Below, one piece after another: positions 2,886 through 62,289 of a DNA stretch of 64,000 bases. Numbering within the stretch: the stretch's first letter is position 1; the number at the start of each line of letters is the position of its first letter. This stretch comes from Bispira polyomma (lineage: Eukaryota). The notes below the pieces were generated by a model, which had not been told where the DNA came from, searched no databases, and saw only the letters and a program-made list of their open reading frames with translations. Made by a program: the position numbers and the translations under genes. The stretch is taken from the NCBI GenBank assembly GCA_965649765.1, contig OZ287755.1, positions 3,410,001-3,474,000 on the forward strand, given 5' to 3'.

Positions 2886-3599
2886 ATAAAGTACATGACA
2901 TTAAAAGAGGGAAAACTGAACAAGATGATTATCCCCCCCCCCCCCCCGCCTAGAAACCGTTCAAGCAGAACAGGAAGGTGACATTATTAGTACTTTTCAC
3001 ATTATGATAGAGGAAATAATGCCAGGAAGAAATTACTAAACAAATATCTGAACAAATTTACAGAAAAATAAAAGACCTGATTGATGAACTAAAATGTGAA
3101 GGGGCAACTCTGATTGACCACTCGGAAAACTACGCCATGAATGTATATTGATGACCATCACAATACACCAATTAAGTGCCAAGGTAGAACAACTGCCCTT
3201 AGAAATTGATCAGTTGAAAGCCTCCACCTCAACAACAGATACAGACCCCTGAAAATTGCTGATGTCATTGTGGTTGTTAGCGGCCCACTCATATATCAAC
3301 AGGAAACCCCAGTATTAATTGTTTACAATTGAATTTAACATTATTAAAAAGTCCAGCACAATATTCAGACAAGGCAACAAGTGCAAATTCAAAAGGCTGT
3401 TAGACTTCCAAACAGAATCATTTCTAACCCCAAAAATTCAAATTCCGAATTACTAGAAAACACAAATATGCTGTTATATTAATGTATGTACACTTTATTT
3501 TATTCAAAGTCATTATCTGTGCTACATTTCTTACTTCATAGATATACAGCCATTTTGTAGGAAGTATAAACTCCAATCCCAGAAGACCTCACTGCTGGA

Positions 3600-9326: not shown

Positions 9327-10055
9327 CACCCCCCAGATGTACTGAAGCAGTCATCACTTATTCAAAATGAGGTATCCTAACGCCTGGCTAGGTATGAAGC
9401 TTGGGTAGCAGATGAAAGCCTACAAGGTTGGCTTTCAACCAAATGAAAGTCAGGGCGATATAACGTCTCGCAAGTTTGCTTTACAGACCTAATGAAATGG
9501 TGGCCGAACGAGCCATGTTCATGTGGAGTAAACAAGAAACGGGTATCTTTTGATGAATTAACAGTTTCTCAATTTGCTGCCGGTCAGTTAAAAAACATTC
9601 TAGAAGTAAAGAACCCAACCATCTCGCGTGTAATGCTCGTACAGCTAGCTGATATCCTCAAGGATGCCTCTAACATCTCATGGCAGATTGCTATGGGCTC
9701 ATATGCATGTAATATGCATGACGTGGAGGACGGTCGCTTGAGTTGGCTGAATGAGACTAAGTGGACCATGAACAGGTTATCTTTTTCCCAAGCTTTAATT
9801 TCTAACAGCACTTCTTCCAATTCTTCTACAGGCAACACCCCCACCACGTCTTCCAACGGAAAGTACGAAATGCCTTGTCGCCATTACCAGAAAAATCAAT
9901 GCCAACACCAGAAGGACCATGAGGGGACAAATGTTATCTTTAAGCACATCTGTGCAAAGTGCTTCTGTGTTGACAAAAAATCAAACCCTCACCCAGAGAC
10001 TAAGTGCTTCAAGATTCACAGATGCTCTAGTGCTCCCTCAAATGTGCCCCAATAG
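9327..10055 (+). pseudogene. Gag-like ORF of copy A with a C-terminal CCCH/CCHC-type zinc finger
   Basis: The frame of ORF 9492-10055 extends upstream through two stops (PDVLKQSSLIQNEVS*RL...KSGRY). It is homologous to the gag ORFs at 20132 and 55753. Confidence 0.85.
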
Positions 10056-13000
10056 GGTCTCGGACTGCAGACAGCCTCCACTGCTAGTTACGTTTATGCA
10101 AATACGGATGATGACAGAAACGAGAGTGTGAGTTATATGAACAAAAAGTTAAGTTATAGACATGATAGGACAAATTGTAGGGAGAACAATAATGAGAAAA
10201 CATATTTAACAGACGTTTTGAGCTTCAGTGATAGTGAATTTTTAGGAGACTGTTCTTGTGATACCAGTACTATAGCTGGACAAGCCAGTGTTAGTTGTAA
10301 ACAGGAGTTGTTATACAACTCTGATAATGTATTTCTTATTCACAATGGCAGTAATAATTTTGTATTTAATTCGTTCATTGTTGATATGTATCAGAGTTAT
10401 AGTTATTTTAGTTCTAATGTTTTATGTTACTATATAGCTTGTCATAGCCATGCATAAATTTCAGGTGTGTACAATTGGGTCTATAAGTCAGAGCAGTGGT
10501 TATTAAAAAGGTCTGCTTTGATATTAGACCAAATATGGCCTGTCTTGTATGTGGACACTGTGGGCATGCCAGTCCTTATGACTAGAAAGTTCTCCTTACC
10601 TAACTTACCAAAACCAAAATAGCAAAAAACCATACACACACACGTGTTAACATAGGTAGTACTCGTTATTACACAGACACGATTGGTATTATGTGTCAAG
10701 ACATTTCACAAACATTTACACACAGATAGCTCAATCAGAAACCATTCCAAAAAGTCCAGAACTTAGTCAGGCCAGTCACACTGCACACACCCTCACTCAC
10801 TACACACAAGGAGTTATGTTAGACCACATAATGACATAAGACTTATTAGTAGATGAGGACACATATGAAGACATACTGACTTCCAGTGACAGGGCTTGTG
10901 GCTTTATTACACACAGCAGAAACAACTTAAAGTTTATAGGACCCGATTCTTATGATAAACTAGCAGAAGTATCAGACATTGTAAAGGCAACAAAGGTAGC
11001 AAATTATAAGCAAGCAAGAATCCCAATTAAGAGTGATCTTATAGTGAAAAACTGGAAAAATATTTAATTGACTACCCTGACAAGATTGTTCTACAATACG
11101 TTGAATTTGGGTTTAACATTTCACTTGGGGATAGAGACAGATTGAGGGTGACTAACCATAAAAACCATTATTCAGCAAAAGCCTTTCCTGAAGCTATAAA
11201 TAAACATTTTGTCAAAGAAGTGCAAAGAGGCACCTTAGTGGGTCCCATAGAAGGAGACCTTCACCCCGACCTTCACTGTTAACCATTACTGACAGTACCT
11301 AAGGACACTGATCAACGTCGGTTAGTACTGAATTTATCACATCCCCTGGGTAAGTCAGTAAATGACTGCACCATTAAAACAAAATATGATAATATGGACT
11401 TCAGCTTAAGGCCACCCACTATTGATCAGATCACTTCACATATTGTTGAATTAGGACTTAACGCAACCTTAGCAAAGGTGGACGTGGCTCACGCATTTCG
11501 TAACTTAAGGATTGACTGCTTAAAATTAGGTAATGTATGGAACAATAGTCACTACATTGATCTTAGCCTTACTTTTGGCCTAACTCATGGCACCACGGCC
11601 TTTATGATGATTTCTGATTGTATTACTTACATTATGAAACAGAAAGGCTACACAGTTTATAACTACATTGACGATTTTGTCCTGTAGAATCAAAAGATAA
11701 GGCAGTCTTAACTTATGACACATTACAAGAAAGTTTGACAGATTTAGGTCTACTCATCAACGCGAAAAAACTAGTCCCTCCAAGTAAACGGGTTACTTTT
11801 ATGGGAATCACTATAGATATCGACCAAGAAACTCTCAGCATTGACCCACGACAAACTAGTTTCTATAACTGACACATGTACCGAATTCCAATACTTACGA
11901 AAAGTACGTAAACAGAAGTACCAGTTACTTAGCAAACTCTTGTTTATAGACCGTTGTATAACCCCTTTTTTACGTTTTGTAAGGCAATTCAATTGCACCA
12001 CAAAATGTGTTGTTACAAGTTGACGCTTGCTTGTCAACACCCCCACCACGTCTTCCAACGGAAAGTACGAAATGCCTTGTCGCCATTACCAGAAAAATCA
12101 ATGCCAACACCAGAAGGACCATGAGGGGACAAATGTTATCTTTAAGCACATCTGTGCAAAGTGCTTCTGTGTTGACAAAAAATCAAACCCTCACCCAGAG
12201 ACTAAGTGCTTCAAGATTCACAGATGCTCTAGTGCTCCCTCAAATGTGCCCCAATAGGGTCTCGGACTGCAGACAGCCTCCACTGCTAGTTACGTTTATG
12301 CAAATACGGATGATGACAGAAACGAGAGTGTGAGTTATATGAACAAAAAGTTAAGTTATAGACATGATAGGACAAATTGTAGGGAGAACAATAATGAGAA
12401 AACATATTTAACAGACGTTTTGAGCTTCAGTGATAGTGAATTTTTAGGAGACTGTTCTTGTGATACCAGTACTATAGCTGGACAAGCCAGTGTTAGTTGT
12501 AAACAGGAGTTGTTATACAACTCTGATAATGTATTTCTTATTCACAATGGCAGTAATAATTTTGTATTTAATTCGTTCATTGTTGATATGTATCAGAGTT
12601 ATAGTTATTTTAGTTCTAATGTTTTATGTTACTATATAGCTTGTCATAGCCATGCATAAATTTCAGGTGTGTACAATTGGGTCTATAAGTCAGAGCAGTG
12701 GTTATTAAAAAGGTCTGCTTTGATATTAGACCAAATATGGCCTGTCTTGTATGTGGACACTGTGGGCATGCCAGTCCTTATGACTAGAAAGTTCTCCTTA
12801 CCTAACTTACCAAAACCAAAATAGCAAAAAACCATACACACACACGTGTTAACATAGGTAGTACTCGTTATTACACAGACACGATTGGTATTATGTGTCA
12901 AGACATTTCACAAACATTTACACACAGATAGCTCAATCAGAAACCATTCCAAAAAGTCCAGAACTTAGTCAGGCCAGTCACACTGCACACACCCTCACTC

Positions 13001-14237
13001 ACTACACACAAGGAGTTATGTTAGACCACATAATGACATAAGACTTATTAGTAGATGAGGACACATATGAAGACATACTGACTTCCAGTGACAGGGCTTG
13101 TGGCTTTATTACACACAGCAGAAACAACTTAAAGTTTATAGGACCCGATTCTTATGATAAACTAGCAGAAGTATCAGACATTGTAAAGGCAACAAAGGTA
13201 GCAAATTATAAGCAAGCAAGAATCCCAATTAAGAGTGATCTTATAGTGAAAAACTGGAAAAATATTTAATTGACTACCCTGACAAGATTGTTCTACAATA
13301 CGTTGAATTTGGGTTTAACATTTCACTTGGGGATAGAGACAGATTGAGGGTGACTAACCATAAAAACCATTATTCAGCAAAAGCCTTTCCTGAAGCTATA
13401 AATAAACATTTTGTCAAAGAAGTGCAAAGAGGCACCTTAGTGGGTCCCATAGAAGGAGACCTTCACCCCGACCTTCACTGTTAACCATTACTGACAGTAC
13501 CTAAGGACACTGATCAACGTCGGTTAGTACTGAATTTATCACATCCCCTGGGTAAGTCAGTAAATGACTGCACCATTAAAACAAAATATGATAATATGGA
13601 CTTCAGCTTAAGGCCACCCACTATTGATCAGATCACTTCACATATTGTTGAATTAGGACTTAACGCAACCTTAGCAAAGGTGGACGTGGCTCACGCATTT
13701 CGTAACTTAAGGATTGACTGCTTAAAATTAGGTAATGTATGGAACAATAGTCACTACATTGATCTTAGCCTTACTTTTGGCCTAACTCATGGCACCACGG
13801 CCTTTATGATGATTTCTGATTGTATTACTTACATTATGAAACAGAAAGGCTACACAGTTTATAACTACATTGACGATTTTGTCCTGTAGAATCAAAAGAT
13901 AAGGCAGTCTTAACTTATGACACATTACAAGAAAGTTTGACAGATTTAGGTCTACTCATCAACGCGAAAAAACTAGTCCCTCCAAGTAAACGGGTTACTT
14001 TTATGGGAATCACTATAGATATCGACCAAGAAACTCTCAGCATTGACCCACGACAAACTAGTTTCTATAACTGACACATGTACCGAATTCCAATACTTAC
14101 GAAAAGTACGTAAACAGAAGTACCAGTTACTTAGCAAACTCTTGTTTATAGACCGTTGTATAACCCCTTTTTTACGTTTTGTAAGGCAATTCAATTGCAC
14201 CACAAAATGTGTTGTTACAAGTTGACGCTTGCTTGTC
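9834..14237 (+). repeat. Tandem duplication, 2 x 2202 bp (9834-12035 and 12036-14237)
   Basis: ORF translations are identical at offset 2202. The junction GCTTGT-C-AACACC has 1 bp of microhomology. Confidence 0.97.
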
Positions 14238-15581
14238 CGGCATAGGTGGTATTTCGAATGATAAAGTTTTCAAAGTGGCCTTGCCGTTATTTATGACACA
14301 CACTTTGTTGATTGTACATTTTGAAATGGTTAGCATTCTAATTGCCCTCAAATTATGGGGACGTGAGTGGAGTAACAAGAAAATAAAAATTCAGTAGAAT
14401 AACATGGCCGTTGTCGCTGTCGTGCAGTCATCCAGAACGAAAGATGATTATTTAGGCTTGTGCTTGTGGAATATCTGGCAAATTTGTGCAGTTGATAACA
14501 TTGATTTAATCATAAGTCATATCCCAGGTAAGGAGAATGTCATCGCAGACGCTCTATCTCGCTGGTATGAACCAGACCATTATGGCAGTCATATCAGTGA
14601 AATCATTACTGACAGTTTTATAATGCATGACATACCAATAGACTTTTTACACTAGACAGTTATGTTTAATTTCAGACACCTCACATTCAGCTGACTCACT
14701 AATTCAAGGGGCATTACGAGGTCTGGAGCCTCTTTAGCTTTCACTTCCAACAAAAAACTCCAGGACATCCAGAAACATGGTTGCTGGAAATCGGATCCTG
14801 TTTGGTCCTACCTTCAAGCCACATCACATGCATCACTTCTACCCTCGAGTTTGGCTTTGGCATGTTTTAAAATTTTACCTAAAAAGTTTACTTGTATAGT
14901 TGTAAATAGAGACGAATAGTTAGAAATAAAATATTCCCAAACAACATCTGATTTATCACCTCCTATCTCATATCATTTGAGCTTTAAAAGGTCAAACTCA
15001 TTCACCTACAATGTCAAGCTGGAATGTCAGTATACTCTGACCTCACTAATTAAGTGACTGTTATATTTTTTGTTACTAGCTTCTAATTAAAAAACATAAA
15101 AATGACACAATATTGTAGTTACTATCAGCAAAGTGGAACGTCAATTGTAGGTTGTTGCTACGGAAAACCATCTGTTGCTATAGAGTTTCCAATTTAAGTG
15201 TAATGATGTATATTTTATTATTTTTTAATATGCATACATTATGAGGGTGGTATTTTATAAAATTAAAATGCTTTTACATATAAATATTATTATAAATAAT
15301 AAAAAATATATTGACCCATTCAGTGATTCTGAACTGATTCCTAAACTACTGAAACAAAAGGACAACATTAAAAAAACTATGTGTGATCACAGAATCTCAG
15401 CATTAGAAATAAATGATGAATTGATTGCGTTCACTGTCAAAGTAAGTCTTTGTTTGCATACGAATATAAAGATATCATTCCTTCCTAGATTGAGACATGT
15501 GAATATCACACATCTCTCCTTTGATACTGGCTGGCAGTAGCTTTTGTAATCCCTGGAATATATAAAACCACAAACTTATCA

Positions 15582-17172: not shown

Positions 17173-17297
17173 GTTTGCCTGGTTGACTAGGTCCCTATAC
17201 AAGACAAGAAAATAAACACAAATATTAGTAGGACATTTAGTAGAGTGTACACCTCCAACAAGGGCGAGAGTGTCAACAGTTAACCATTCTCTGGATA

Positions 17298-17821
17298 TCA
17301 CAGTCAGTCCTAGAATATAATTTTGTATATACACAGTCAGTCCTAAAATACAATCTATTGATACAAAATCAATACTTGAATACAATCCTAATATACACAG
17401 TCAGTCCTAGAATACAATCTATTTATTCACAGTCAGTATTAGAATACAATCTCTTTATACATTCAATAATAGAATACAATCTATTGATGCACAGTCAATA
17501 CTAGAATACAATCTTAATATACACAGTCAGTCCTAGAATACAATCTATTTAAACACAGTCAGTCTTAGAATACAATCTATTCATACACAGTCAATACTAG
17601 AATACAATCTATTTATAAACAGTCAATACTAGAATATAATCTATTCATATACAGTCAATACTACAATGCAATCTTTATATACACAGTCAATACTAGAATA
17701 CAATTTATATACACACAGTCAGTCCTGGAATAAAATCTATTTATACACAGTCGGTCCTAGAATACAATCTATTTATACATAATTAATACTAGCATACTAT
17801 TGTAATATACACAGTCAGTCC
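17298..17821. repeat. 32-bp minisatellite (~16 copies; ACACAGTCAGTCCTAGAATACAATCTATTTAT) in the PGAP4 5' intron
   Basis: Unit starts at 17521, 17553 and 17585 are exactly 32 bp apart. Confidence 0.93.
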
Positions 17822-17928
17822 TTTGTAATTTATCAAGTAACTTAACCTTTATGATATGGTTGTATTTAATTCCAATTCTGTAATATAACAATTTTTATCA
17901 CACATAATTCTGTTTTACACAAAATTCA

Positions 17929-19752: not shown

Positions 19753-22645
19753 ATGTCCAACAAGGTTGGCAAAAAGTGTAAATATAACTTGGTGGACAGC
19801 GTCGCTGACAAAGTGGCTACCGTCGATCCTGGTTTCGGATTCTGTTTCTGCTTTGATTCTACAACAACTGGTGGCGATGAACTGTCTCCTCGGATAGCAT
19901 GGACTGGCGAGTGCAGGCTACAAAGGCGGCGCTTTGTATACCCAGCGATAAGGCATGCAATACTTCTTCTAAATCAGCTACTTGTACTATTGAACCAGTA
20001 GTTGAGGCCATTGTGCCATCCCTTAGAGTATTTACGTTCTAATGCAGGCTTACAAAACCAGGTTGTTCAACAGCTGCTGCAGTTGTAACACTTAAATGAT
20101 TTAACGGGAGGTAAATTTAAGTCCCAGAGATGTGGTGCTGAAGAGAAACTTGGATTGGCCACAAAATTTTGTCTTGTCTGGTGTAAAAAAGGTTAGACCC
20201 ACCTATGATGACCTTACGTTGGTTCAATTTATCTCTGGCTTTATCGCATGCACCCAAGAGCAAAAGGAACCCTCTGTCCGAGAGGCCATGCTAGAATACC
20301 TTGCTAATTTAATGGACGACGCCCATGATTTTTCATGTGACGCCGCCAAAACCTCTCATGCCATTTTATTAACTAATATGGAAATGGATTGTCTTACTTG
20401 GACGGACTTTGACATGGTTGACCGGATAAGGCATGCCCATGCACAACATCATATTCCCTTGGCATCGGGTGGGTCTGGCCCTTCTAAAAACAGTGGTAAC
20501 TGTAAAAGTAAAGTACAAGCCAGAACTCCTAAAGTTAACGGTCGTTTCTTTCAAGAGGGAACGTGTAAATTTAAGGCCAGCCATCGAACCTCTTGACGGT
20601 GGTTCAAACACTGCTGTGAGGGTACAAGGGTACTCACCACACAAAGCTATGTCCTAAGAAAGAGGTTACAAAAAACTTTAAAAAAAAAAACTGTATATAA
20701 TTCTGCCTTTTCAGATTTTAAACTGTTTAACCATGTATGTTTCATTTCTAAGGTATGTGTAAAGCGAATTGTCCCAAGGTCTTATCGGGATGTGCTAAAA
20801 CAGGGCACAAGTGGTGCCGCTGGAAATTTCAGTGGAAAACCTAAGGTGGGCGAAAAAGGGGGAATACTTGAAACCAGGGCCCCTATTGCCACAGTCATGT
20901 CAAAAACCTATTCACGAAAAGGTGGTAAACCTGTTGCCAACAATCCATTGTTCCCTACAAAACGTGTGTATGAATCTAATCTAATCTAATCTAGTCGTAC
21001 TTTTATAGCGCTTAATCTTTGTACAACAAATTCTAAGGCGCAACAAACCCAAAACGTTAATCGCAAATCAAAAATAGTGGGCGGATGGAAGTCGTAACCA
21101 GGGAGACTACCGTAGATGGTTGCGATGGCTAAGGTGGAAAAGCCTGTTCAAAAAGATAGGCCTTCAGCTTACTCCTGAAAGAGGAGAAAGTTTGAGCCAG
21201 GCGAACATGATCAGGTAGGCTGTTCCAAATGAGGGGGCCATCATGAGCTAGGCAGTGATTGAACTGAACTTTGGATTTGTGGATGCGAGGGTCGAAAGTG
21301 GGAATGTTAAGGTATAATTTATCAGAGTTACTGCGCCTAGTCCTGACTGAGCATGTATATTTAGATAGATGGGGGCTAAAATAAGTGGGTAATCCAGAAT
21401 TTAGAAATTTATATATTATTGTTGCTGTTTTGAAAGCAACACGATATTTTATTGGAGCCAGTGCAGTGACTTCAGTACAGGAGTAATGTGGGAAAATTTA
21501 GATGTTTTGGTCACAATACGTGCCAAGGAGTGTTGGATATTCTGAAGGAGTCTGAGATCACTACGAGATAAGGAACGGAACAGAGAGTTGCAGTAATCAA
21601 GCCTGCATTGGCAACAGTGATTGCAGTGGATTTGGAAGATGAAGACAAAATCAATCTTGTTGCCAACAAACCATTGTCTAGGTCGAGTGTACAAACTGTT
21701 ATTAGCCATGTTGAAACCAATTAAGTGAACGTGTCAAAACAGAACCATGGTTCCTCTGTCAACCAATTAGGTTGAGTGTTATTGAGTCTAACAATGGACG
21801 GGGGGGTGGGGGGGGAGGTCTCCCCCATTGTCAAACCAATTAAGTCAGAGGGTGTTAAAGGTGACAATGAACCTGATAGTTTCAGGTTGGCCCTTCACAA
21901 TAGGTTTGCTTGTTTGGACAGTCTGTTTGTAGAGACAATCGAATTGGGTGACACTTCACTTGAGGGGGAAAGTACTGCCTGTGGCCCGAAAATTACCCCT
22001 GAGTTCCAAAAGGATCTGAACTGGTTTACTGCTTTCCTGCATTAATATAATGGGGTCACTTTTTTCCATCATGCCCCCATTACTGCCATGAATGAGTTAG
22101 ATGCCTGCCTTACAGACATGGGGGAATTTACCGGAAACAAGTCTACTACCTCCCTGTCCCTGTTGCTATGCAACACCACAATATTGCTTCATTCGAAATG
22201 TTGAACATTCATGTTGCTCTCAACTTGTGGGGAAGACATTGGCAGGGTCACAAACTACTAGTAAAAGGCGACAACCAGGCGGTTGTAAGTGTCCTCACTC
22301 ATGGTAGAACTCGGGACAGTGAATTAGTTTGATGTAGAGATAAAAGTAGTGCATATTTTAGGAAATGACAACACAACTACTGACATGCTGTCTTGTTGGA
22401 CAAATTCTACAAAAGATAACGTTCTCTTGCAGGAGCTGGCTGGCACTGTCCAATGGTGTACAGTGACTGAAGATCACTTGTTGCTTAATGACCAAATATA
22501 ATGTATTACTTTGTCCTCTTTCTCTTGGCAGTATTTTGTATTACAGGCAAGAGTCCTCTGTAACAGTTACTATATAGAAATACAACCAAGAAGCTGCACC
22601 TGGCCTTCTGCAGATCAGCCGACAGATCATATACAGCCATGTAAA
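19753..22645 (+). mobile_element. Tyrosine-recombinase retrotransposon, copy B; RT core deleted, interrupted by an L2, YR truncated
   Basis: Gag (GKFKSQR, WPQNFVL, YDDLT, HDFS, HAILL; 20132-20680); RT/RH junction FQKDLNWFTAFL..YNGV; RNase H (LDACL, EMLNI, GDNQAVV, DMLS); YR N-terminus at 22547-22645. Confidence 0.88.
20973..21745 (-). mobile_element. 5'-truncated L2 LINE nested in copy B
   Basis: RLDYCNSL...HITPVLKSLHWL, a 3' stem-loop GCGCCTTAG...TAAGCGCT, and an (AGATT)4 tail. Confidence 0.9.
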
Positions 22646-49733: not shown

Positions 49734-52700
49734 TGACAATCATTTCCAACAGATTGGCTTACTCAATCACCTGTGTCGTCTTCCATATTGTCCTTCATCA
49801 TTAACTTTGAAGTCAAATGAATAACACTTAACAATTTTATTTGTTTCATTTTAGTTTGTTATAGGTCAACTCAAACACATTTTTTACAACTAGTTCATAT
49901 ATATTATATGGAAGACTCCACTGCACAGCACGGTTAAGCCGAAAACAAAGAAGATTACACAAAGCAAGGTGAACAAAACTGGGGCAACGATGGGTGAATG
50001 GTAACTGGTAATATGGAGTCTGACTTACAGACACAGTTAACTAACTTAATTCACGGGGTTACTGATGTCAGAGTCGACCTCTCTGGTTTTCCTGCTAGCA
50101 ACACTAGATCTACCCGTTGGACCCAGCCTCCTCTGCTGGGAGTTACACACGACCTTGGAGAGCACATCCTGTGGTACACTCTGCCTTGGCCCTGAGTATG
50201 CATGCAGTACATATACATGAAGTGTCCTTTATCATGGGAGAACACAAGTTGAGTCCGTCTCTTGCTAACAACGCTAACTTTAACACTGAAACTGAATCAT
50301 AACACTTTATTACTCAACAATCTTAGTAAAAGAAACAGTCCATCCAGAAGTGTTTCAAAGCTAATTTGAAAAGAAAATACGACGAACAAGCCAGCAATGG
50401 CTACAGACAAACAGAACAGTAAATTGTGATAATTAGAGTAATAAATTTATTGACGATGCAGATCGTGAGTTCATTAGGAACAATCTTGACAGGGACAATC
50501 AGTACAAAAAGGTGCTTAGTGAAAATAGAAATAATAGAGACATAAATGAGGACGTTATTAACGTGTGTGTGGATGGTAAAGTTATAAATGTCATATCTGA
50601 TTCGAATTCGGAAAGTGACACTGTAATTTACAACACTGACATTATTATTTTTCAGACAATAACACTGTTACTGATGATGTTGACATATTTGTTGAGGGTT
50701 ATATTTGAGATGCAGGCAGATATCATAGCATTTAATCTAACACACATAGTATAGATGCAGCTGAGGAGCAGCAACTGATGAGTCATTCACATAAGTACGA
50801 CTTTTGACTGGTGTACAGAATGCCGTTATCAAAAGTGCGGAGGCAGATGGGACATTGGCTGGCAAGATTGGACATAATGCAGGTGACATGCTCTTATATG
50901 CACAAAAAGTTCAGTGACTAACTAGTATGAAAAAATGAACAAGTTAGGGATAGGACTCCTGTAGCTAATATTTATAGCAAATAATATGAGAGTTTCTTCT
51001 GCTTTCATCACTACATTACCATCACTGGCCTTGTCTCCTGTTAATGTTGTGATCTTCACCTCTTACAATACTACTGCATGGTTGCAGATAAGCTGAATCA
51101 ATAATGCTTTCCTGAGAATAGACACCTTGTCAAAAAATATCATAGATCAGGATAAACACGAATATAATTATTATTAGGGATTTAGAGTGTTTCAGTCAAC
51201 CAAGTGTTGGAGTCTAATCGAAATGTTAGTACTGATAGTACTATGTCAGAAAGGGTAATGTTATTTGTATTTCTAAGGAACAATGTAAGAGTTATAAATG
51301 AAAGTTCTATTAATATCCACCATGCACACATAACCAACGTTAAGGTGGAATCATAGTGGTATATATCTGCTGCTTCTGGAATTTAAAATTATTAACTATA
51401 ATTTACACAATATATTATAAATAGCCTGTACTGGCTAAAGGCAAGTTAATATAATCATATATAATGCATAAAACAGGTAATATCATTCTTCGTTTATAAG
51501 CAAAACTGTTAGAGTAAAAGCACCCATATACTCTGGTATAGAATTCCATAGTGAGTTTGTTAATAAGAACAATGTTGCCATTATTGATTTACATAAACGT
51601 ATGGGTTTCATTGCTTTATCTGCTACAGAATTTAAATTTTATGACCCTGGTCGGCTCCCTGTTACCATTAAAACAGTTAAAGATATGTTAAACATAAGTT
51701 GGGTAGTAAGTGGCAGTGGTTTTCCTGACTATAAACAGGCTAGGTGTCCACTTACCTCTTGACTAAATCACTCAGGCTGGGACACCATATTTAAGGTATA
51801 TCCTGACCAATTGCTAATCGAATATGTGAAGCTTGGAATCCCACTTAGTTTCACTAATTCACACACATTACATAAAACAGAGGTTAAAAACAACCAATCT
51901 GCCCTTTGGGACACTGACGCAGTTGATCAATATTTAGACAAAGAACAGAAACATGGAGCAATGTTAGGTCCAGTTGAGGTTAAGTTAAGGTTCATTGTTC
52001 CCACTTGTCAACTTGTCCCAAAGATGTGGACAAATGTAATTTTTAAGGCAGGCATCTAGATAAGGCAAGTTCACGTTGGTACTATGGTAAGGTTAATATA
52101 TGTAACCCTGTTGAACCCCGGCAGAAGATTGAGAAACCAGGTGAGGTCGTCCTTTATTCACCTAATTACTGTATACTATTTCATTGTATTACTATCTCTG
52201 CTGATACAATCACCAATGATGTACCAACTTTGAAATGTATGGCTTCCAAACTTCTGTTAGACATCTCACCATTTTAGTACAGTTACTTGTTCCTTTATGA
52301 GCATCACTCATAATTCTACTTTTAGACATAACCCCCCAAAAATCCTTTGACAAACACCAGTTAACACAGATTTCCAAACGTTGTGACATATTGCAGGATC
52401 TAATACGTTACAGAGCTCTATTTGTTAGCATTCTTTAGGTTTCTTAGGTTCTCAAACATCGCCCCTCACTCTAGCATATCTTTTGACCTTACCAGACATT
52501 TTCTCAGGCAATCCCTCATATTTGGGCACCCTGGAGCCCATATCATCCTCAAGGGAGCAAAAACCTATAAAATAGAACAGACAGCCACACATTTCTAATT
52601 TCCATGGTACAAAACAATGTACTTTGCCCAGTGCATGGTTTAAATAAACTACTTGCTTCCAGGCACCTTCCTGTTGTGAATTCTCATTTAAGGACCTCAC

Positions 52701-53134
52701 TACATATAGTCCTGGATCACATAGGAGTACAATATCAATCACATGGGATTCATACCTTTAGAAGTTCTGGAGCCAACCATGCTTTTAGCAATAATGTTTC
52801 ATTGCAAAAGATAATGTCGCCTGGCTGATGGAGGTCATCAGCAGTGAGGACTTGCCTTTAAATAACAACCCAAGCTGCTTCTGTAGTTCCCAATACTTTC
52901 ACTTCCACAATTCCTTCTTTCTCATAGCTTGGCTTGGGTACATAGACATATAGTAATATGTAAATGTATCATTCCTCAAACATTATTTCACTGTGTTACA
53001 CTTTGTGATCTACCTTACTTTACTTAACACATTGACTGTTACACCCTCCCTTAATATTTTCGTCATATATTCGTCTGTCCATGACATTCATTTTTAATCA
53101 GATTGGCCTGTTCAATCACATGTTCAATCACCTG
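49734..53134 (+). mobile_element. Tyrosine-recombinase retrotransposon, copy C; heavily decayed, with deletions and an inversion
   Basis: Gag end HPE..CFK (~50341); RT N-terminus DYKQARCP..LLIEYVKLGIPL..GAMLGP (51600-52040); YR LCPV...HGIHTFRSSGA..AF...G*WRSSAV (52300-52860). Confidence 0.85.
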
Positions 53135-55255
53135 TTGTTGGTAACCATTCAATTTACTGTTTCCCATGCATCCCAAAACATGAGTATTTTAGATATGGTG
53201 TAAATTGTCTGAGTAGGGACCTGAGAAGATAGATATAGAAAGACCTGAGAGTTAATATTTAGGCTGACTCGAACATGATATTTGGGGAGAGTTGTGACCA
53301 CTGGTGGAAGGACAAATACTGCTCTCTGCATGTTAACAAACAACTCGAAGAGTGTCTGTAAATCTTGTTTTTGTAGAGCTGGTGTAAATTTTATGTAACA
53401 ATCAGTTGTAATTATAGGTCAATAAACAGGGCGTACTGTGCACTCCACAATTGTCCAAACGGATTGATTTTATATTCAATCTTAGTTGTTTTTTTTTCCA
53501 TTAAAATGCAAACACCAAGTCATGTTATTGTACTACACTCACCGTGTGGTAGACTGTGTATCTTATAGTGTCATAGTTAGACATATTTGACTGGGGTGTC
53601 AGTGAGTTCAGAGTGAGATTCATCTACATGAACATGGTCAGAAATTGACAAAGAGTGTTTCCAATTGGCCTGGTCTATTTACAATAAATATTTGACCTTT
53701 ACCCTAATTATTAAGAAATCACTGAGCAGAAGAGTGATAACATAATTTTGTGCTAGATTTAGGAAAATGTCTAGACTTAGCCATGTTGAGAGTACCGCCC
53801 CTGAAGTACAGAGCCAGGTGTAATCCATACTATTACACAGCGTGACATTGAAGCGGAGAGGTCTAACATCAACGACATAACAGAACCCTGTAGGACACTG
53901 AAGAAGAGATCAAAAGGAAATGGCTTGGCTCCAGTGAGCATGATGATTTGACCATGACCGTCTAAATCAGACTCAATCCATTGATAGACAAACCAAGAAT
54001 TAAGACATTTATAAAGATCCTTTGCAAGCCAAATACATTTTACATGACAAAGAGTTTTTCAATTATCACTAGAGAGGAAGGTAATACCTAATGAAAAATT
54101 TAGCGTTATGGAGACACAGAAGGCATTTTGTTCTTGGTAATTTTATATTCACAAAAGACAAACCACAAAATATCACCTGCTCCCGCAAGAATGTGAACCT
54201 GATCAGGACAAAGTATTGAAATAGAACAACTTAAAATAGAAGCAGCGCTGATGTTATTAGATTAAGTCTGTAATTTGATAGCTGTCTATAATACTTTTTA
54301 TGTTCTATTAAACCTGTGGGAATATTGTAATGTCCTAAGAAGAACAGTGAGGACAGTGATCTTATCTTTAGAGGTTGTTAACCCAACCCAAGAAGTCATG
54401 ATATCTAAAACAGTAAATAGTAGGTGGGTGTGGTTTAAGGTTTTGCCTAGAAAACATGCAAAACCATAGCATTAAAACCAGAAAAAAACACACACTACTT
54501 TCATATTAAGGCCTTAATATTTAAATTAGAGATTTTACTTAATGATGAGTGAAAATAAAAATAAGGGAGAAACAGAATAACAGCTGAAGTTGAATTTTAT
54601 ATATATTAAGTTTCGGAAAACTGTTACACAAAACAAGGCATAAAATTGCAACAACAAATAATAATATATATATATATATGATCAAATACACCCTTCACAA
54701 ACGTAACACAAAACATATACAAAGAAGGAATTGTGTACTAGGTAGACCAAAGGGGGTAGTAAGTTCGGTGCTGGCCTTAATTACCTTTGTTAAAGTCTAT
54801 TCTGGTTAAGTGACCTCAATTAGTGATTGGATGGCAGTTGGCCTATATCCCTCTAAATTCCCGCCAAAACCTTAATTACCTCACTTTAAAATTAGAATTT
54901 GGAAGGGCACAACGCCATTTTAGAAAACTTTCAATTCTCTTTTATTTGTGTTTTATTTTTAATTAGTTGTTTTTTATGTTACATTTTACAAAACTTTTAT
55001 AAATACACGAGTCTTGCTATATGTTATAGGCAAAGGATGGTTGCAGTGTGGATTTAGAACTGAGGCTTGCAGGCACCTGACTGAAGTGTTATTTGTCATT
55101 GCTTTGACATATGCGAATTTTGCTCTTTTTTAGGGCTACGGTTGAGGGCTGTTACTATTTGGATTAAATTTATTATCTATTTATTTACAAAAAGCATCAC
55201 AACCTCAACCTAAAATCCGCATGTCCCAAAGCATTGTGTAATTTATATTTACAGA

Positions 55256-56322
55256 ATGGCAACCCATGCTAATCATGACTGCCGAGCTTGCAAAACAAGC
55301 CATGAAAAACAATAAACGAGAACTGTCCATTTATTAATCAAACTCAGGATACTGACTCTAATGACACTTCTAGTACAGATATAAATGTACGTATTCTAGA
55401 AGAACTGAAAGGGCTGAGTGGTCGAATGTCGGCTATGGAAAGGCGGGTGGAACAATCTGAAAATAGACAAGCTGTGCCTAGTTCTACAGTAAGCCCAGTA
55501 ATGCCTGCCCCCGTGACATTCCCAGTGGCGGCTGCCAATGTGACTCAGGCTGTTCCAGCTTCCATGATGGCTCAGACTACCCAGGCATCTCCTGCAGTGA
55601 TGACGGCAGAAGACACGTTGGTCCCCTCCTTGGCTACACTAAAGACTTCCGAGTACCTCCAGAATGCTGTTGACTGCAGACTGCGAGACCTGGCCAACCT
55701 AAGTGAAAAAGGTAACTAGAAATCTCAGAGAGGGGGATCTGAAACTGTATGGGTGGAATCTAAGGTCGCTTGGCCACAAAATAACATTTTAGGGGGTACC
55801 ACCAAGTCTCGAACCACATATGATAGCCTTTCTATGGCACAATGGGTTGTAGGTTTTTGTTCTATTGTGAGAGATAAAAATAATGTCGAAACTAAAAATG
55901 CAATGTTGGACTATGTCCAAGACCTCATGGAGGACTGTCATGATTTTTCTTGGCCAGCTGCCAAGGGCAGCCATGCTGTTCTTCTGTGTCGCATGGAAGA
56001 GGGTAAAGTTTCCTGGGGGGAAACAGCTAAAATAGACAGAATCAGAAGAGCGCATGCTCAAAAAGTTGTCAACAATACGGTTTCCTCATCTCAGTACAGT
56101 AAATCTAGGGCTTATCAAGGCAATGACAAGGGAATCCCTTGTAGATACTTTCAAAAGGGTTCGTGCCCACAGAAAACAGATCATGAGACTAAGGGGCAAA
56201 TGTATTTACACATTTGTTCCACCTGCTTTACAGTAGGGAAGTCATTTCCACACTCGTCAAAAGATTGTCACAGAAATAGAACAGTTAAAGGGTTTGAACA
56301 AAACGTGGCAAAAAACGATTAA
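55256..56322 (+). pseudogene. Gag of copy D
   Basis: ATG at 55256 (CxxCxxxH start), a frameshift, then ORFs 55426-55719 and 55753-56322 in one frame separated by a single TAG (GN*KSQRGG). C-terminal Cys/His finger. Confidence 0.88.
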
Positions 56323-56343
56323 GGCACTGCAGTACAGCAGTGC
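56310..56343 (+). promoter_or_regulatory. Putative -1 ribosomal frameshift signal (A_AAA_AAC, 7-nt spacer, 7-bp hairpin)
   Basis: Heptamer 56310-56316 is in the gag frame two codons before the stop, followed by hairpin GCACTGC-AGTACA-GCAGTGC. The -1 frame is open to 56591. Confidence 0.7.
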
Positions 56344-58759
56344 AAAAGTGTAACGATCAAAAGGTTACTGGTCATACTTCTGCATATAGTACAGATCGGT
56401 TGAACTACTATAGTACTAAAATTGTATATAATGCAAATATTAGAGTCATATCTAGCGACAACTGGAGGGCCGACTGGGCCAGGTTTACAAACAAGTCTTA
56501 TGCCCAAGTGGTTTCTCAAAACAAGTATAGTAAACAAAATAATAAACAAAGTACAACCCCTGTCGGGCCTCCAATTGTTGCCCACTTGTAAAAACTCAAA
56601 TGTTTAGAAATGTATGTACAAATAATGTTGTCAGTTACAGGAATGTAAACAAAAATGTTAAAAGGATGGAAAGTCGCACCTCAGTGGAAGGTGTGAAAAC
56701 CCCAATTGTCCAAAAATCCCCTCCTCCAAGGTCCATGAGGAACAATGAACCAAGTCGCACCTCTTACAAAGGTGTGAGAAAAGGTGTCTTAACACTCCCA
56801 AACAATAAATGTAGCGAGGTAGGTGACGACAAGGAACAAGTCCCTTGTTACAATAGATTCACACCCCTGCAGGAATTGTTAGGTGAACATAGTGACACAG
56901 GTGGGAAAAATAACAATAATAATTCTTTTCAGTCAAGCAAATCCAAGTTCACATGTCACTGATAAGTATGAACTACAACTTCAACTGAAAAAGAAACACA
57001 GAGACGCAGTGTCAATGGCACGAGATAATGCTCTGTATCAGGCTTGCAATTCACAGAATAAAGAAAAGTTTGGTTTCATCCCACTGGGAGATACAAAATT
57101 ACCCACAGAGGTTAAGGCCCATTCACACTTAGTTGATTCTCTTGAATTACATGACATGGTCAAAAAAGATAGTCTACCAAATTTTCTAGGCGCCCAGATA
57201 CCAGTCAAATCGCAATTAAATGGTGAAGAATGGGAAAAATTACTCGAACATTACTGGGATCGCCAGCTCATTCACCTTATTAAGTTTGACTTCCCCCTGG
57301 ATTTTGACAGAAAGTGTACTCTAGAAAACAAAGGGGAAAATCATAGTTCGGCCATTCAATTTAAGAGCGATGTTAAGGCCTATCTCAAAGAGGAGAAAGA
57401 CTTCGGTGCAATAATTGGTCCTGATAAAGAACCTCCATTATCTGATTTGCATATTTCGCCATTCATGACACGTCCAAAACCAGAAGCTAAGCAGAAGAGT
57501 CATTATAGATTTGAGTTGCCCTAAAGGTAAAGCTGTAAACTCAGCTATAGAAAAAAGAACAACATTTGGGAACTCTATTTATCCTCACACTCCCTACGGT
57601 AGATGACATTACTAGAAACATAATCAAATTAGGAAAAGGGGCGCTTTTGTACAAGTTGGACATTAATCGTGCATTTAGACATGTTAAAATTGATCCGGCA
57701 AACTATGATCTACTAGGTTTACAACTAGATGAATACTATATCAACATTTGTCTCACCTTCGGCTATCGCCATGGGAGCGCGATCTTTCAGAGACTTAGTG
57801 GCGCCATAAGATTCAACATGACGTCACAGGGTCACAAGGTAATAAATTACATCGATGACGTCATAGGATACGGACTGCCGGCGACAGTTTCAGACAGTTT
57901 TGAGTTGCTGAAAGAGGTGTTTCACAAACTGGGCTTCGCTATAAGTGAGAAAAAGGTCGTAGCTCTAAGTACAAAAGTCGTCTGTCTATGCGTGTTAGTA
58001 AACACTGAAGAATTCACGGTTTCAATTCCAGATACAAAAAATTAAGCAAATCTGTGAAAATTGGAAAAATAAGAAATGCTGCACAAAAAGGCAGCTCCAG
58101 TCATTGCTAGGGTCACTTCTTTACGTTTCAAAATGCGTGAAAACCTCTAGAGTATACCTCAATAGAATGTTAGACACTCTCCGTAGTGCTACAAATGACA
58201 ATAACATTAAATTAGACATCACTTTTCACCAGGACTTAAACTGGTTTAATACCTTTCTTACTAGCTTTAATGGAGTGGCTTTCTTCGAACACAAACCAGT
58301 AACGGATGAAGTGCATTTAGATGCCTGCCTTCAAGGCTTAGGTGCGTGTTGTAATAACGAAGTCTAAACAAAAGAAATCCCTTTGGGATTAAAGACTATA
58401 CTATTGTCCATTTGGAAATGCTAAACATCTTGGTGGCTATCAGAATCTGGAAAAATTAATGGTCAGGAAGGAAATTGCTGGTACACTGCGATAACCAGGC
58501 TGTAGTTTCAATTTTAAACTCAGGAAAAACCTATGACTTGACCCTAGCTGCAATTACGAGAAACATTTTCATGGAAACAGCCAGGGCTGATATTGAGTTA
58601 AGAACGGTCCACATTTTAGGCAAAAGAAACACCACAGCGGATCTACTTTCTCGGTGGGCAATCACTCCCCATAGAACTGACAAATTAAATGTACTAATAA
58701 AAATTCCTACATGGCTCCAGGTGAAGGATGACCTACTGCAAATAGACTGGGATATTTAG
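56316..58759 (+). pseudogene. Pol (linker, reverse transcriptase, RNase H) of copy D
   Basis: Consecutive ORF fragments carrying DIRS-type RT and RNase H motifs. Confidence 0.9.
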
Positions 58760-58779
58760 GTATAACAAAAATTTTTCAG

Positions 58780-59420
58780 GTGCTTCAACCTGGGTGACTA
58801 GACTAGCAGACAGGGCAGCCAATAGAGCTCAGCAAGCCTTGCGGCTCTCTACTCAAAAAGCTTACTCTGCCATGTTTAGGGTATTCATAGCCTACTGCTG
58901 TTTTGCTCACATTTCTATTGATAATATCACTCCTATTTCGTTGCTATCATTTTTGGAAGTTCTAGTAGTCAATAATACTTCCCACACCTCAGTAGCCAAT
59001 TACTTATCAGCCATTAAGGCTCACATGTCTCTGTATGGCTTGCAAATTGGAGCATTTGCAGACCAAAGAATTAAATATTTTCAAAAGGCCATGATATTAC
59101 AAAAACCCTTCAGAGCCAAAATAAATGGTCTTATTAATATTGATCTATTACAGAAAATAACACAAACATGTGACTCCATGTATATGGGTCAAATACCTTT
59201 TAGCATTTTTCTCATTTCTTCGTATTTCGAATCTGGTTCCCCATTCCATTGCTTCATACTCACCTTTACACCAGTTGGCAAGGGCTGACATAATATTCGC
59301 CCCACCTGGTGCCCATATTATTATAAAGTGGACTAAAACTTTACAGTCAAGAAATACGGTCAAGGTAATCAAATTCCTTCTCTACAGGACATTGCTATTT
59401 GTCCAGTCATGGCCCTAAGG
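58780..59420 (+). pseudogene. Tyrosine recombinase of copy D (N-terminal and catalytic Arg/Lys region)
   Basis: STQKAYSAMFRVF, NYLSAIK, FFSFLRISNL, KWTKT and CPV motifs; no ATG at its start. Confidence 0.88.
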
Positions 59421-60149
59421 GTGTTACTGAACATTTTGGTAACAACTATAAACTTATTTTTCCACTGCAGCGGTGACGTCATATGTCTGAGAAGTATTGT
59501 ACACCATTTCAACAGTAGCCAACTACAAAATAATCCATAAACTGTTTAAAACTTTCACATATATAAATGTAGCGTAGCATAAGTGTAAATTTGAAACAAA
59601 TTCTTAAGGTGACAAGTCAGTCCCTGTCTTTGTGTTATATTTTACATATAGGAGCATAATAATTACATTTATAGGTGGATAATAAAAGTAAAATAACCCT
59701 CGTGCCGCATATTTTTAAATTTTACCACTAGTGAAGACAAACTACATCATCCTTGTCCTTACTCAGATGGTACTGGGTTGTATTCTCACATTGTAAAATT
59801 AAAAAATTTGAGTCGCTTGGGTAATTTTCTTCTTTTTTTTTTTTATGTTACAATAAAAATACTTCTCTGTAAGATTTCTTTACAAATATGATATTCTACA
59901 TACATTTTTAAATTGTATCACAGCACCATACAAAGTTCCCGCTGTGGCTGTTTAAAATATTGTAAAGCTAATTAACAAAATTTCCCTAACCAAAAAAAAA
60001 AAAATAGTACTTCTTGATATTAACTAAATATAAATTAACTAAATGTAACCAGTCATAACCTTTCGTCAAGATGTTACTAAACTCATAATTATATTTTAAT
60101 AATGGTGCAAAATGCAAATCTAGTAAATAACATACCTGTGCTACTGTGC

Positions 60150-60600
60150 TAAAATTCTGTAAACCCACAACCCACGGCAAGTACCTGGCAAACTTCCCCA
60201 CTTGAAGGAACAAACAGAATTCGAACCCATTCTGGTAAGCAGATGTTTTTAATCACTGAACCACAGCAGTACATTATCTGCCAATGACAACATACATAGC
60301 AAATAAAAGGCACGATTCCTCGCTCTAGTACATTCAACAGATGTATACTGAGATTCAAGATAATAATAATGATGGTTATGATGCAATGTCTGCATACCAA
60401 AATTCTGTACAAAATCTACAAAATGCTCCTTAGATTCTTTGTCAGCGTATGTCCCTATGAAACCATATTTTTTTCTGATTTAAATTTTGATCAATTGTGT
60501 GTCTTCTAGGTCTGATTTTTTTTAATATCTACGATTATATTATATAGTCTATGATAAAGAAGATCATCCATTAGTCGAAGGATTTCCTTTATTGATAGGC
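60150..60600 (-). repeat. Meta-like SINE fragment plus ~300 bp of flank shared with 47200-47660
   Basis: CCCACGGCAAGTACCTG.CAAACTT followed by colinear similarity to TCGAAGGATTTCC in both copies. Confidence 0.72.
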
Positions 60601-60854
60601 CAGTGACTATGAAGCTAACACTTCTAACCACTAGACCACTTAAGGCAGATAGTTGTTCACACAAGAGCCATATATAATGACAGTGTCCCATAGCATAGGG
60701 CCTGATGATGTATGATCAGGCAGGGAAACTTTGAGGAGTATGTTAATATAAATTTGATCATAGACTATATATTCCACTCTACTACGATAGTATCCGGATC
60801 TATTCCCATGAATATTTTGGGAAAATGATGAATTTCAAAGAGATTATTGATGAT

Positions 60855-61210
60855 TTAAGCACTGTTAAAATCCTGTTAGCCCTCCTACCTTGCTAATCAT
60901 GTTTCCATGAGTCACATTAAGAGGACAGAGGCTGTTTCTTTCCTCTGTAAAATCTACCAAGAGGGCGAGATCTAGAGCTGGTTCAATTGCTGTCGCTGTG
61001 TTATGGAATAGTCGCCCTCTTGAGTTTATATCGCTAGAAACACTTTCTTTGTTCTGGAAAAAGGTTAAAACCTATCTCGTCTAACCTGCTTACCTTCTTA
61101 GTTCCCTCTTTGTACAGTTCCACATCCTTCCTTACGACCGTGCTATGTTTTTGGATTTTTCTTTTGGTAAATTCATTTTGTTTTTACACTTTACATAAGG
61201 CTCGTTAAAA
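60855..61210 (+). mobile_element. L2 3' fragment, same family as 37008-38355
   Basis: LWNS, KKVKTYL and the 3'UTR block CCCACATCCTTCCTTACGAC are shared with the 37 kb element. Confidence 0.75.
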
Positions 61211-62289
61211 TGCCAAACACAATACAATTAAAATGTTCCATTGCCTTCAAGCTGAATTTCTGATATGGCAATCTCATTCCAACGCCTGGATGCAATTGCA
61301 CATTTGGCAGTAGTCATTTGCTTATATTATCTTGAAATTAGTAGTAATCAGCTAGTATGACAGCTTTCAGTATATCTGTTCCATTTGCTTCAAATAACTG
61401 CAAAATGTATGTATTACCTATAATGGCAGCTACTGGAAAAATGTCTTTTTCCAACTGAAATTTGATATGCGGAAAAAAGTAATGAATAATTTAGTGACAT
61501 TTCAAGGTCAGTAGGTGTCAATTATACCAAAGTCCAAAATCCTCCTTTATTAAATGGGTGAATACTGAGTGCTTTTAGGTATAATTAATTGAAACCATAT
61601 GTGAAACACTGACTTTGACGTGTTTTTTTTTTTTAAATTTCAGTGGCCATTGACCTTAATGGTCACGTGATAATTGGCTGGTAACTAGGTAACATGTGTT
61701 TTGGCGATAATTGTCTGAAGTCAACGTATATAAAGATTGATGGGAAGGGGTTATTTTAGTCACTAGTGAACAAAATTAATTCGGTTTCTTACAACAGGGC
61801 GAATGTAATTGTTGTGACTATGGTATTGACTTCTGTGGGGTAGTCTAGATAGTACTGCTAGGAAAGGTTTAATAAGGGTTCGTGGCAATAACAGTACTGA
61901 CCTGTGTTAACAAAAATCTCAAATCACTGCCACATTTAGTTTACAGAATTTATACATTGCACAAAATATGTGTTTCCCTGTGATGTGCATCACATCATTT
62001 TAGAATGCAGTTTAAATGTCACAAAAAGGAATTGTAACATGTTCCTTAAGCATCAATATGGGCAAACCTAGTATTTGAGGAAAAGTTTCAATGAAGTTAT
62101 CTATATTTTTATACTTGCTTTCCTTTTTGAGATATGTTTGATCAAAATAAAATTATGTTATCATTTTTATTTCTGTTTCAATGCATAATTCATCCCAAAG
62201 GAAAGTACAGGCATCACTCAAACAGCTGCCATTTACACAATGAGGTTTTTTTAAGTTTTTTTAATTGGGATATATAATGTCCACTCTAG

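Follow-up and report, generated by a model that had tools for sequence, protein, structure and literature searches.

A conserved putative -1 frameshift cassette at the gag/pol junction of a Ngaro-like retrotransposon family

Gene content and class of the element

The window, a 64,000-nucleotide stretch of Bispira polyomma DNA, contains on its + strand, from 55256 to ~59430, a decayed retrotransposon made up of gag, a reverse transcriptase/RNase H (RT/RNase H) region and a 3'-truncated tyrosine recombinase (YR) gene. The gag-like ORF1 (55256..56322), delimited with homologues and tblastn, encodes an N-terminal Cys/His motif and a C-terminal zinc finger, with a weak match to zf-CCCH_4 (E 0.017), and is broken by a frame change near 55.30 kb and a stop at 55717-19. 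An acceptor-like TTTACAG at 55250-55258, directly 5' of the likely gag ATG, hints at an intron in the 5' UTR. At the end of gag lie a slippery heptamer, A_AAA_AAC, in the gag frame (56310..56316), a 7-nucleotide spacer that includes the gag stop codon (56317..56323, stop at 56320-22), and a GC-rich 7-bp hairpin (56324..56343), a putative frameshift stimulator whose -1 frame codes for H-C-x-x-A-V. The -1 frame itself (56310..56591) is, as its homologues show, the N-terminal part of Pol, with a conserved NWRADW..SYAQVV motif and no in-frame ATG. The low-complexity Pol linker with its NRF motif (56546..56962) is displaced to another frame in this copy, and was placed by a weak collinear protein match (P0149, E 0.016) and the frame arithmetic of a sibling contig. 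RT and RNase H, recognised by RVT_1 and homologues, occupy several broken pieces at 56883..58759, with no methyltransferase domain at their end. The YR ORF (58746..59430, its end approximate) lies in the +1 frame relative to pol, which it overlaps by 14 nucleotides; its N-terminal part was identified by Phage_int_SAM matches and translation. With stops and frame changes in gag, pol and YR, the window copy is dead, and the claim of frameshifting thus concerns the family and not this copy.

The sequence-only reading had called the element DIRS-like. The methyltransferase domain which, in the available parts of PMC3266345 and PMC4157794, defines DIRS1-like and PAT-like elements is absent. In all nine complete Pol homologues, 27-34 residues follow the final RNase H motif, which is too little to hold a methyltransferase, and no methyltransferase Pfam domain was found among the four Pol homologues scanned. 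The element is therefore best called Ngaro-like, not DIRS1-like, an assignment made from gene order and the missing methyltransferase; methyltransferase loss is described as homoplasious in the same partial text (PMC4157794). Ngaro elements, as portrayed in the accessible parts of four papers (PMC3266345, PMC4157794, PMC3783388, PMC9210276), carry, all on one strand, gag followed by RT/RNase H and then YR, with short ORF overlaps and no methyltransferase. The window element resembles them in gene order, strand, missing methyltransferase and short overlaps, whereas their split direct repeats were not seen in a self-comparison of 53000-62000, nor were DIRS1-type inverted terminal repeats or an internal complementary region found. 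Terminal repeats are not visible in this truncated copy because its 3' end is missing.

The gag/pol junction and its homologues

The gag end reads GCA AAA AAC GAT TAA, which puts the heptamer two codons before the stop. A 6-nucleotide loop separates the hairpin arms, 56324-30 and 56337-43, whose sequences are exactly reverse-complementary, and the -1 frame is open over 56310-56588, or 93 codons. The gag end, in-frame heptamer, 7-nucleotide spacer and perfect 7-bp stem described in the sequence-only reading were all exact when the sequence was re-read, and its estimate of about 90 open codons containing SYAQVV was borne out. Canonical -1 stimulatory structures sit 5-9 nucleotides downstream of the heptamer, a range that includes the 7 nucleotides seen here. 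The predicted folding energy of the hairpin is -12.8 kcal/mol, and its z-score goes from -4.0 for a 25-nucleotide fragment to -3.2 (44 nucleotides), -2.2 (84 nucleotides) and -1.3 (116 nucleotides). AAAAAAC occurs 39 times on the two strands of the window, and a perfect stem of at least 7 bp lies downstream of just one of these, at 56310-16. Such stems follow 130 of 18,270 sampled positions (0.7%), so that ~0.3 sites combining heptamer and stem are expected by chance and the lone site is not significant. The weight of the frameshift case is in the position of the site and its conservation, not in the rarity of the pattern. An Rfam search gave a single chance-level match (E 1.6, far under the gathering score). 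No conserved second stem was seen. A loop pseudoknot, based on a 4-base match with 56349-52, was dropped as the family's stimulator because conservation stops at 56343/44.

We searched with the C-terminal half of Gag and obtained 316 homologues at E<=0.001; all counts use the best 120 of these. A C-terminal K-N-x is present in 74 of these 120 Gags, against a K-N background of 1%. Leaving aside 18 of the 120 whose end was not recognised, 102 Gags (median pairwise identity 54%) have a recognisable zinc-finger end, and K-N is present in 92 and absent in 10 of them. The 92 comprise 70 that end K-N-x-stop (x being E in 57, D in 11 and K in 2), four that end K-N-stop and 18 that read on. When the Gags are clustered at 70% identity, most members carry K-N in 31 of 33 clusters, and at 60% this holds for all 12; for six of the 10 Gags that lack it, the nearest neighbour, at 82-93% identity, does carry K-N. 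Between 2 and 10 residues separate K-N from the last Cys, so that its place is set by the stop rather than the fold. Furthermore, all 92 Gags have S, A, T, P, V or L immediately before K-N, compared with 30% in the same tails; K never stands there (23% of tail residues), nor does a residue whose codon cannot end in A (16% in tails). This is as expected if the A-run is kept at exactly six. The homologues are related and are not independent draws, so the nominal p-value of 1e-7 overstates the significance. A search of the ESM Atlas with one Gag homologue returned unnamed clusters only.

The 93-residue -1 peptide had 17 matches in a library at 50% identity. Fifteen are genuine homologues; P0128 and P0132 were discarded as a repeat and an unrelated protein. 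A further 19 longer homologues were found, and the motif common to the -1-peptide homologues is NWRADW..[ST]YA.VV. In seven proteins (six of the 19 longer homologues and P0121) this motif is joined to RT, with a low-complexity linker of roughly 200-300 residues between the two. P0149, which represents 57 sequences, matches three pieces of the window in order: the -1 peptide (E 2e-12), the next ORF (a weak E of 0.016) and the ORF for the RT N-terminus (E 2e-52). Four other Pol homologues differ, three starting downstream of the -1 motif and one, P0123, having no recognisable -1 motif. The sequence comparisons thus indicate that the -1 frame of the window is the N-terminus of the family's Pol. 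The sequence-only reading had made its case depend on an intact pol that continues in the -1 frame and has no ATG of its own; the seven RT-bearing proteins and the collinear P0149 speak for the former, and the latter agrees with the lack of an in-frame ATG in the -1 frame of the window copy. In six predicted proteins (P0054, P0134, P0137, P0145, P0146 and P0089) Gag runs directly into the -1 frame, mostly at the A-run. These are natural or assembly length changes that mimic a frameshift product.

The two reading frames also bear on the hairpin, although the DNA of the homologues was here deduced from predicted proteins and not read directly. Upstream of the -1 motif, [H/L]-C-x-x-A-V is found in 12 proteins, eight of which can be read from [K/Q]-K-x-x-[R/G] onward with one spacing. 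In the gag frame, 18 Gags continue beyond the usual stop; 13 of them have [G/S]-T-A at a common spacing (the T-A reading is absent in the other five), and all seven read-through proteins that extend far enough contain [G/S/C]-T-A-x-x-Q-C. Where Asn is followed by an Arg of the -1 frame, the Asn codon must be AAC, because AAT would yield a stop. Likewise, Thr-Ala and Gln-Cys in the gag frame require the -1 codons CAC for His, TGC for Cys, GCA for Ala and GTG for Val, whose third bases would be just the four synonymous positions that take part in stem pairing. The ORFs of the element use CAC for 15 of 30 His, TGC for 11 of 26 Cys, GCA for 17 of 73 Ala and GTG for 18 of 69 Val. Such fixed, paired synonymous bases argue that the stem is kept at the nucleotide level while loop codons vary; from the protein readings, all seven stem pairs look invariant, and the varying loop codons are compatible with an eighth pair. 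Conservation of both heptamer and hairpin, on which the initial proposal depended, is thus implied across the homologues by the K-N ends, the fixed spacing and the paired synonymous bases. Searches for the DNA of relatives in metagenome contigs, viral contigs and prokaryote genomes gave no confirmed locus.

Assembled contigs were consistent with a cassette of these limits. We aligned Logan contigs at 80% likeness from three sequencing runs containing the stretch (287, 329 and 324 contigs), which stem from at most two samples of one study, possibly the window's own source; none of the runs listed as containing the stretch is an RNA run. Summed depth, which does not equal copy number, is maximal in the bin 56313-63, at 3063, 2707 and 12075 compared with 123, 190 and 301 in the next bin (14-40x), and exceeds that of the best-conserved gag bins. 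Loose contig ends are found before 56309/10 and again behind 56343/44, and at these points several joints run into or out of the stretch, suggesting that diverged copies share just the heptamer, spacer and hairpin. No variant falls within 56310-43 among those listed (40 of 400 substitutions and 12 of 35 indels). By coordinate arithmetic, one sibling contig stays in a single frame between the stem and the ORF that comes next in the window, and other contigs have length differences near 56.56 and 56.92 kb, where the window copy is broken.

Translation of Pol

We consider it highly probable that active members of this family make Gag and a minor Gag-Pol product by -1 slippage of tandem tRNAs on A_AAA_AAC, with the hairpin as stimulator. 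Most ribosomes would terminate two codons past the heptamer and release Gag. A minority would pause at the hairpin 7 nucleotides downstream, shift one base backward over the Lys and Asn codons and enter pol, giving a Gag-linker-RT-RNase H fusion at perhaps a few percent of Gag. That Pol is made as a Gag-Pol fusion by frameshifting had been suggested at the outset, and the conservation of the cassette together with the continuity of Pol with the -1 frame supports this. The slip itself, its efficiency and an uncleaved fusion are what we infer from these features. The available portion of PMC5009743 places A_AAA_AAC with the heptamers on which mammalian ribosomes shift most readily. In a hairpin series excerpted from PMC3203594, a 6-bp stem of -13.1 kcal/mol gave 3.5% frameshifting and activity was lost near 5 bp; natural frameshift hairpins have 10-12 bp in the same excerpt. 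Because the stem here is shorter than those known natural hairpins, its efficiency is probably a few percent. Tyrosine-recombinase retrotransposons encode no protease, as far as the partial text of PMC3783388 goes, and the Gag-Pol fusion may therefore stay whole.

It is unlikely that Pol is instead made separately, by termination-reinitiation or from an internal AUG or GUG at the gag stop or in the 3' arm of the hairpin. Three predicted proteins do have M-R-H-C as their N-terminus where the frames overlap at the stop, and 14 open with M-[P/Q/H] at roughly the position of the 3' arm, so that an AUG or GUG start there is conceivable for these relatives, and the window has an in-frame GTG at 56340. 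However, close relatives have Val at both M positions (HCNVAVP compared with MPSV, and KKRVRHC compared with MRHC). Prokaryotic gene callers write GTG starts as M, and a Val in relatives would be expected if such a program had done so here. The -1 frame of the window has no ATG, and separate initiation needs neither a run of six A nor AAC, nor a -1 frame that is open back to the heptamer.

Two further readings seem very improbable to us, and about equally so. The hairpin could be a packaging, Gag-binding or reverse-transcription signal and K-N-E a C-terminal protein motif, with frameshifting incidental. The stem is indeed short for a stimulator, conservation reveals selection but not which function is selected, and the priming of reverse transcription is unknown even for DIRS-1 in the available part of PMC7192593. 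However, this leaves Pol with no route to translation and gives no reason for a fixed spacer, for the codons used or for the limited set of residues seen ahead of K-N; the hairpin may have a second role besides frameshifting. Alternatively, Pol might be reached at the RNA level, if transcription slipped on the A-run or if splicing bypassed the gag stop. P0054, P0134, P0137 and P0145, in which Gag passes without a break into the -1 frame at the A-run, indicate that A-run lengths do change in DNA or in assemblies, and splice-like signals exist elsewhere in the element. Against this, the run has just six A and is apparently kept from growing, no pyrimidine tract precedes the gag/pol junction, and a hairpin at a fixed 7-nucleotide distance would suit a ribosome and not a polymerase.

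Known systems, the recombinase gene and other copies

A_AAA_AAC followed by a 3' structure drives -1 frameshifting in retroviruses such as MMTV and HTLV. The HTLV-2 gag-pro and HIV-1 gag-pol junctions, as described in the accessible part of PMC3203594, share with the window a heptamer, a short spacer, a GC-rich hairpin at the gag end and a next ORF in -1, and differ in their stems of 10-12 bp compared with 7 bp in the window (relatives being compatible with 8); the window signal is a predicted one, and the window element has no protease or DDE integrase. Among animal LTR retrotransposons, pol lies in -1 in 28 of 51 surveyed, as given in the available portion of PMC5009743; the gag/pol layout and the heptamer class are alike, whereas the window element belongs to another order, with a tyrosine recombinase and no LTR or integrase. 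DIRS, Ngaro and tyrosine recombinase are not named in the first 300,000 of the 449,034 characters of that review.

The accessible main texts of PMC3266345, PMC3783388, PMC6681497, PMC8547959 and PMC9210276, all on DIRS or Ngaro elements, describe no slippery site, and those of PMC9004415, PMC7192593 and PMC4157794 contain no relevant passage on frameshifting. Poulter and Butler 2015, as quoted in the available part of PMC13003380, thought that the Ngaro YR is probably reached by frameshifting with a -1 overlap. That guess concerns pol/YR in -1, whereas the signal in the window is at gag/pol, and its YR is +1 to pol with splice-like signals. We found no described gag/pol signal for this order in the literature at hand, and Goodwin and Poulter 2004 or Poulter and Butler 2015 may describe one, so priority is uncertain. 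Judged from sequence, the window holds a real and well-conserved putative -1 frameshift cassette where gag meets pol in a Ngaro-like family, canonical in its mechanism. In the literature available in part, translation of the downstream ORFs of tyrosine-recombinase retrotransposons has been guessed and not shown; with a conserved 35-nucleotide cassette, this can be put to the test in a standard reporter. The cassette would extend the retroviral style of Gag-Pol control to another order of retrotransposons, implies that existing Pol models for this family begin too late, and supplies a large natural set of variants of a stimulatory hairpin that is very short.

The YR gene may be expressed in another way. 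A donor-like site lies in gag at 55711-55713 (AAA G/GT AAC, phase 1) and an acceptor-like site at 58773-58780, just past the pol stop (TTTTTCAG/GT, phase 1); used together, they would give an in-frame fusion of the Gag N-terminus with YR. G-[K/M/T/R] is found at the donor-like place in 80 of 92 Gag homologues. Pyrimidine-rich stretches ending in AG also occur right after the pol stop in two other copies in the window, B (22500-22550) and C (14655-14710). We tentatively entertain a wider scheme, which we regard as somewhat less probable than its contrary: the 35-nucleotide minimal cassette, with its unusually short hairpin, as the first recoding signal to be concretely defined for a tyrosine-recombinase retrotransposon, an uncleaved Gag-RT/RNase H, a spliced Gag-YR and, in all, three Gag-headed proteins per transcript.

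Copy B, also on the + strand, has ACA AAA AAC after, and in frame with, the last zinc-finger Cys (heptamer 20670..20676), just where it had been reported. Its -1 frame stops two codons past the heptamer and no hairpin stands out (folding z -0.8), so it counts as weak support. The more distant copy C, whose Gag is 28-32% identical to the queries, has no heptamer, which indicates that the signal belongs to one clade and not to every related element. Its gag ends CAA TAG GGT (stop 10053-55), and the same frame is then open for 133 codons (to 10457). This extension holds KTYLTDVL, which resembles the Pol N-terminal motif. Copy C may possibly use stop-codon readthrough instead of frameshifting; no stable fold was found downstream of its gag stop (z +1.2 and +0.9). 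Copy C also contains an apparently exact internal tandem duplication with a period of 2202 bases (9833-12034 and 12035-14236), which is either a recent duplication or an assembly artefact. Another decayed fragment, with the same RT N-terminal domain, lies at 51500-52030, and the other repeats in the window are MITE-like nested inverted repeats (1-1181), a 21-bp tandem array (1265-1740) and a 32-bp tandem array (17266-17854).
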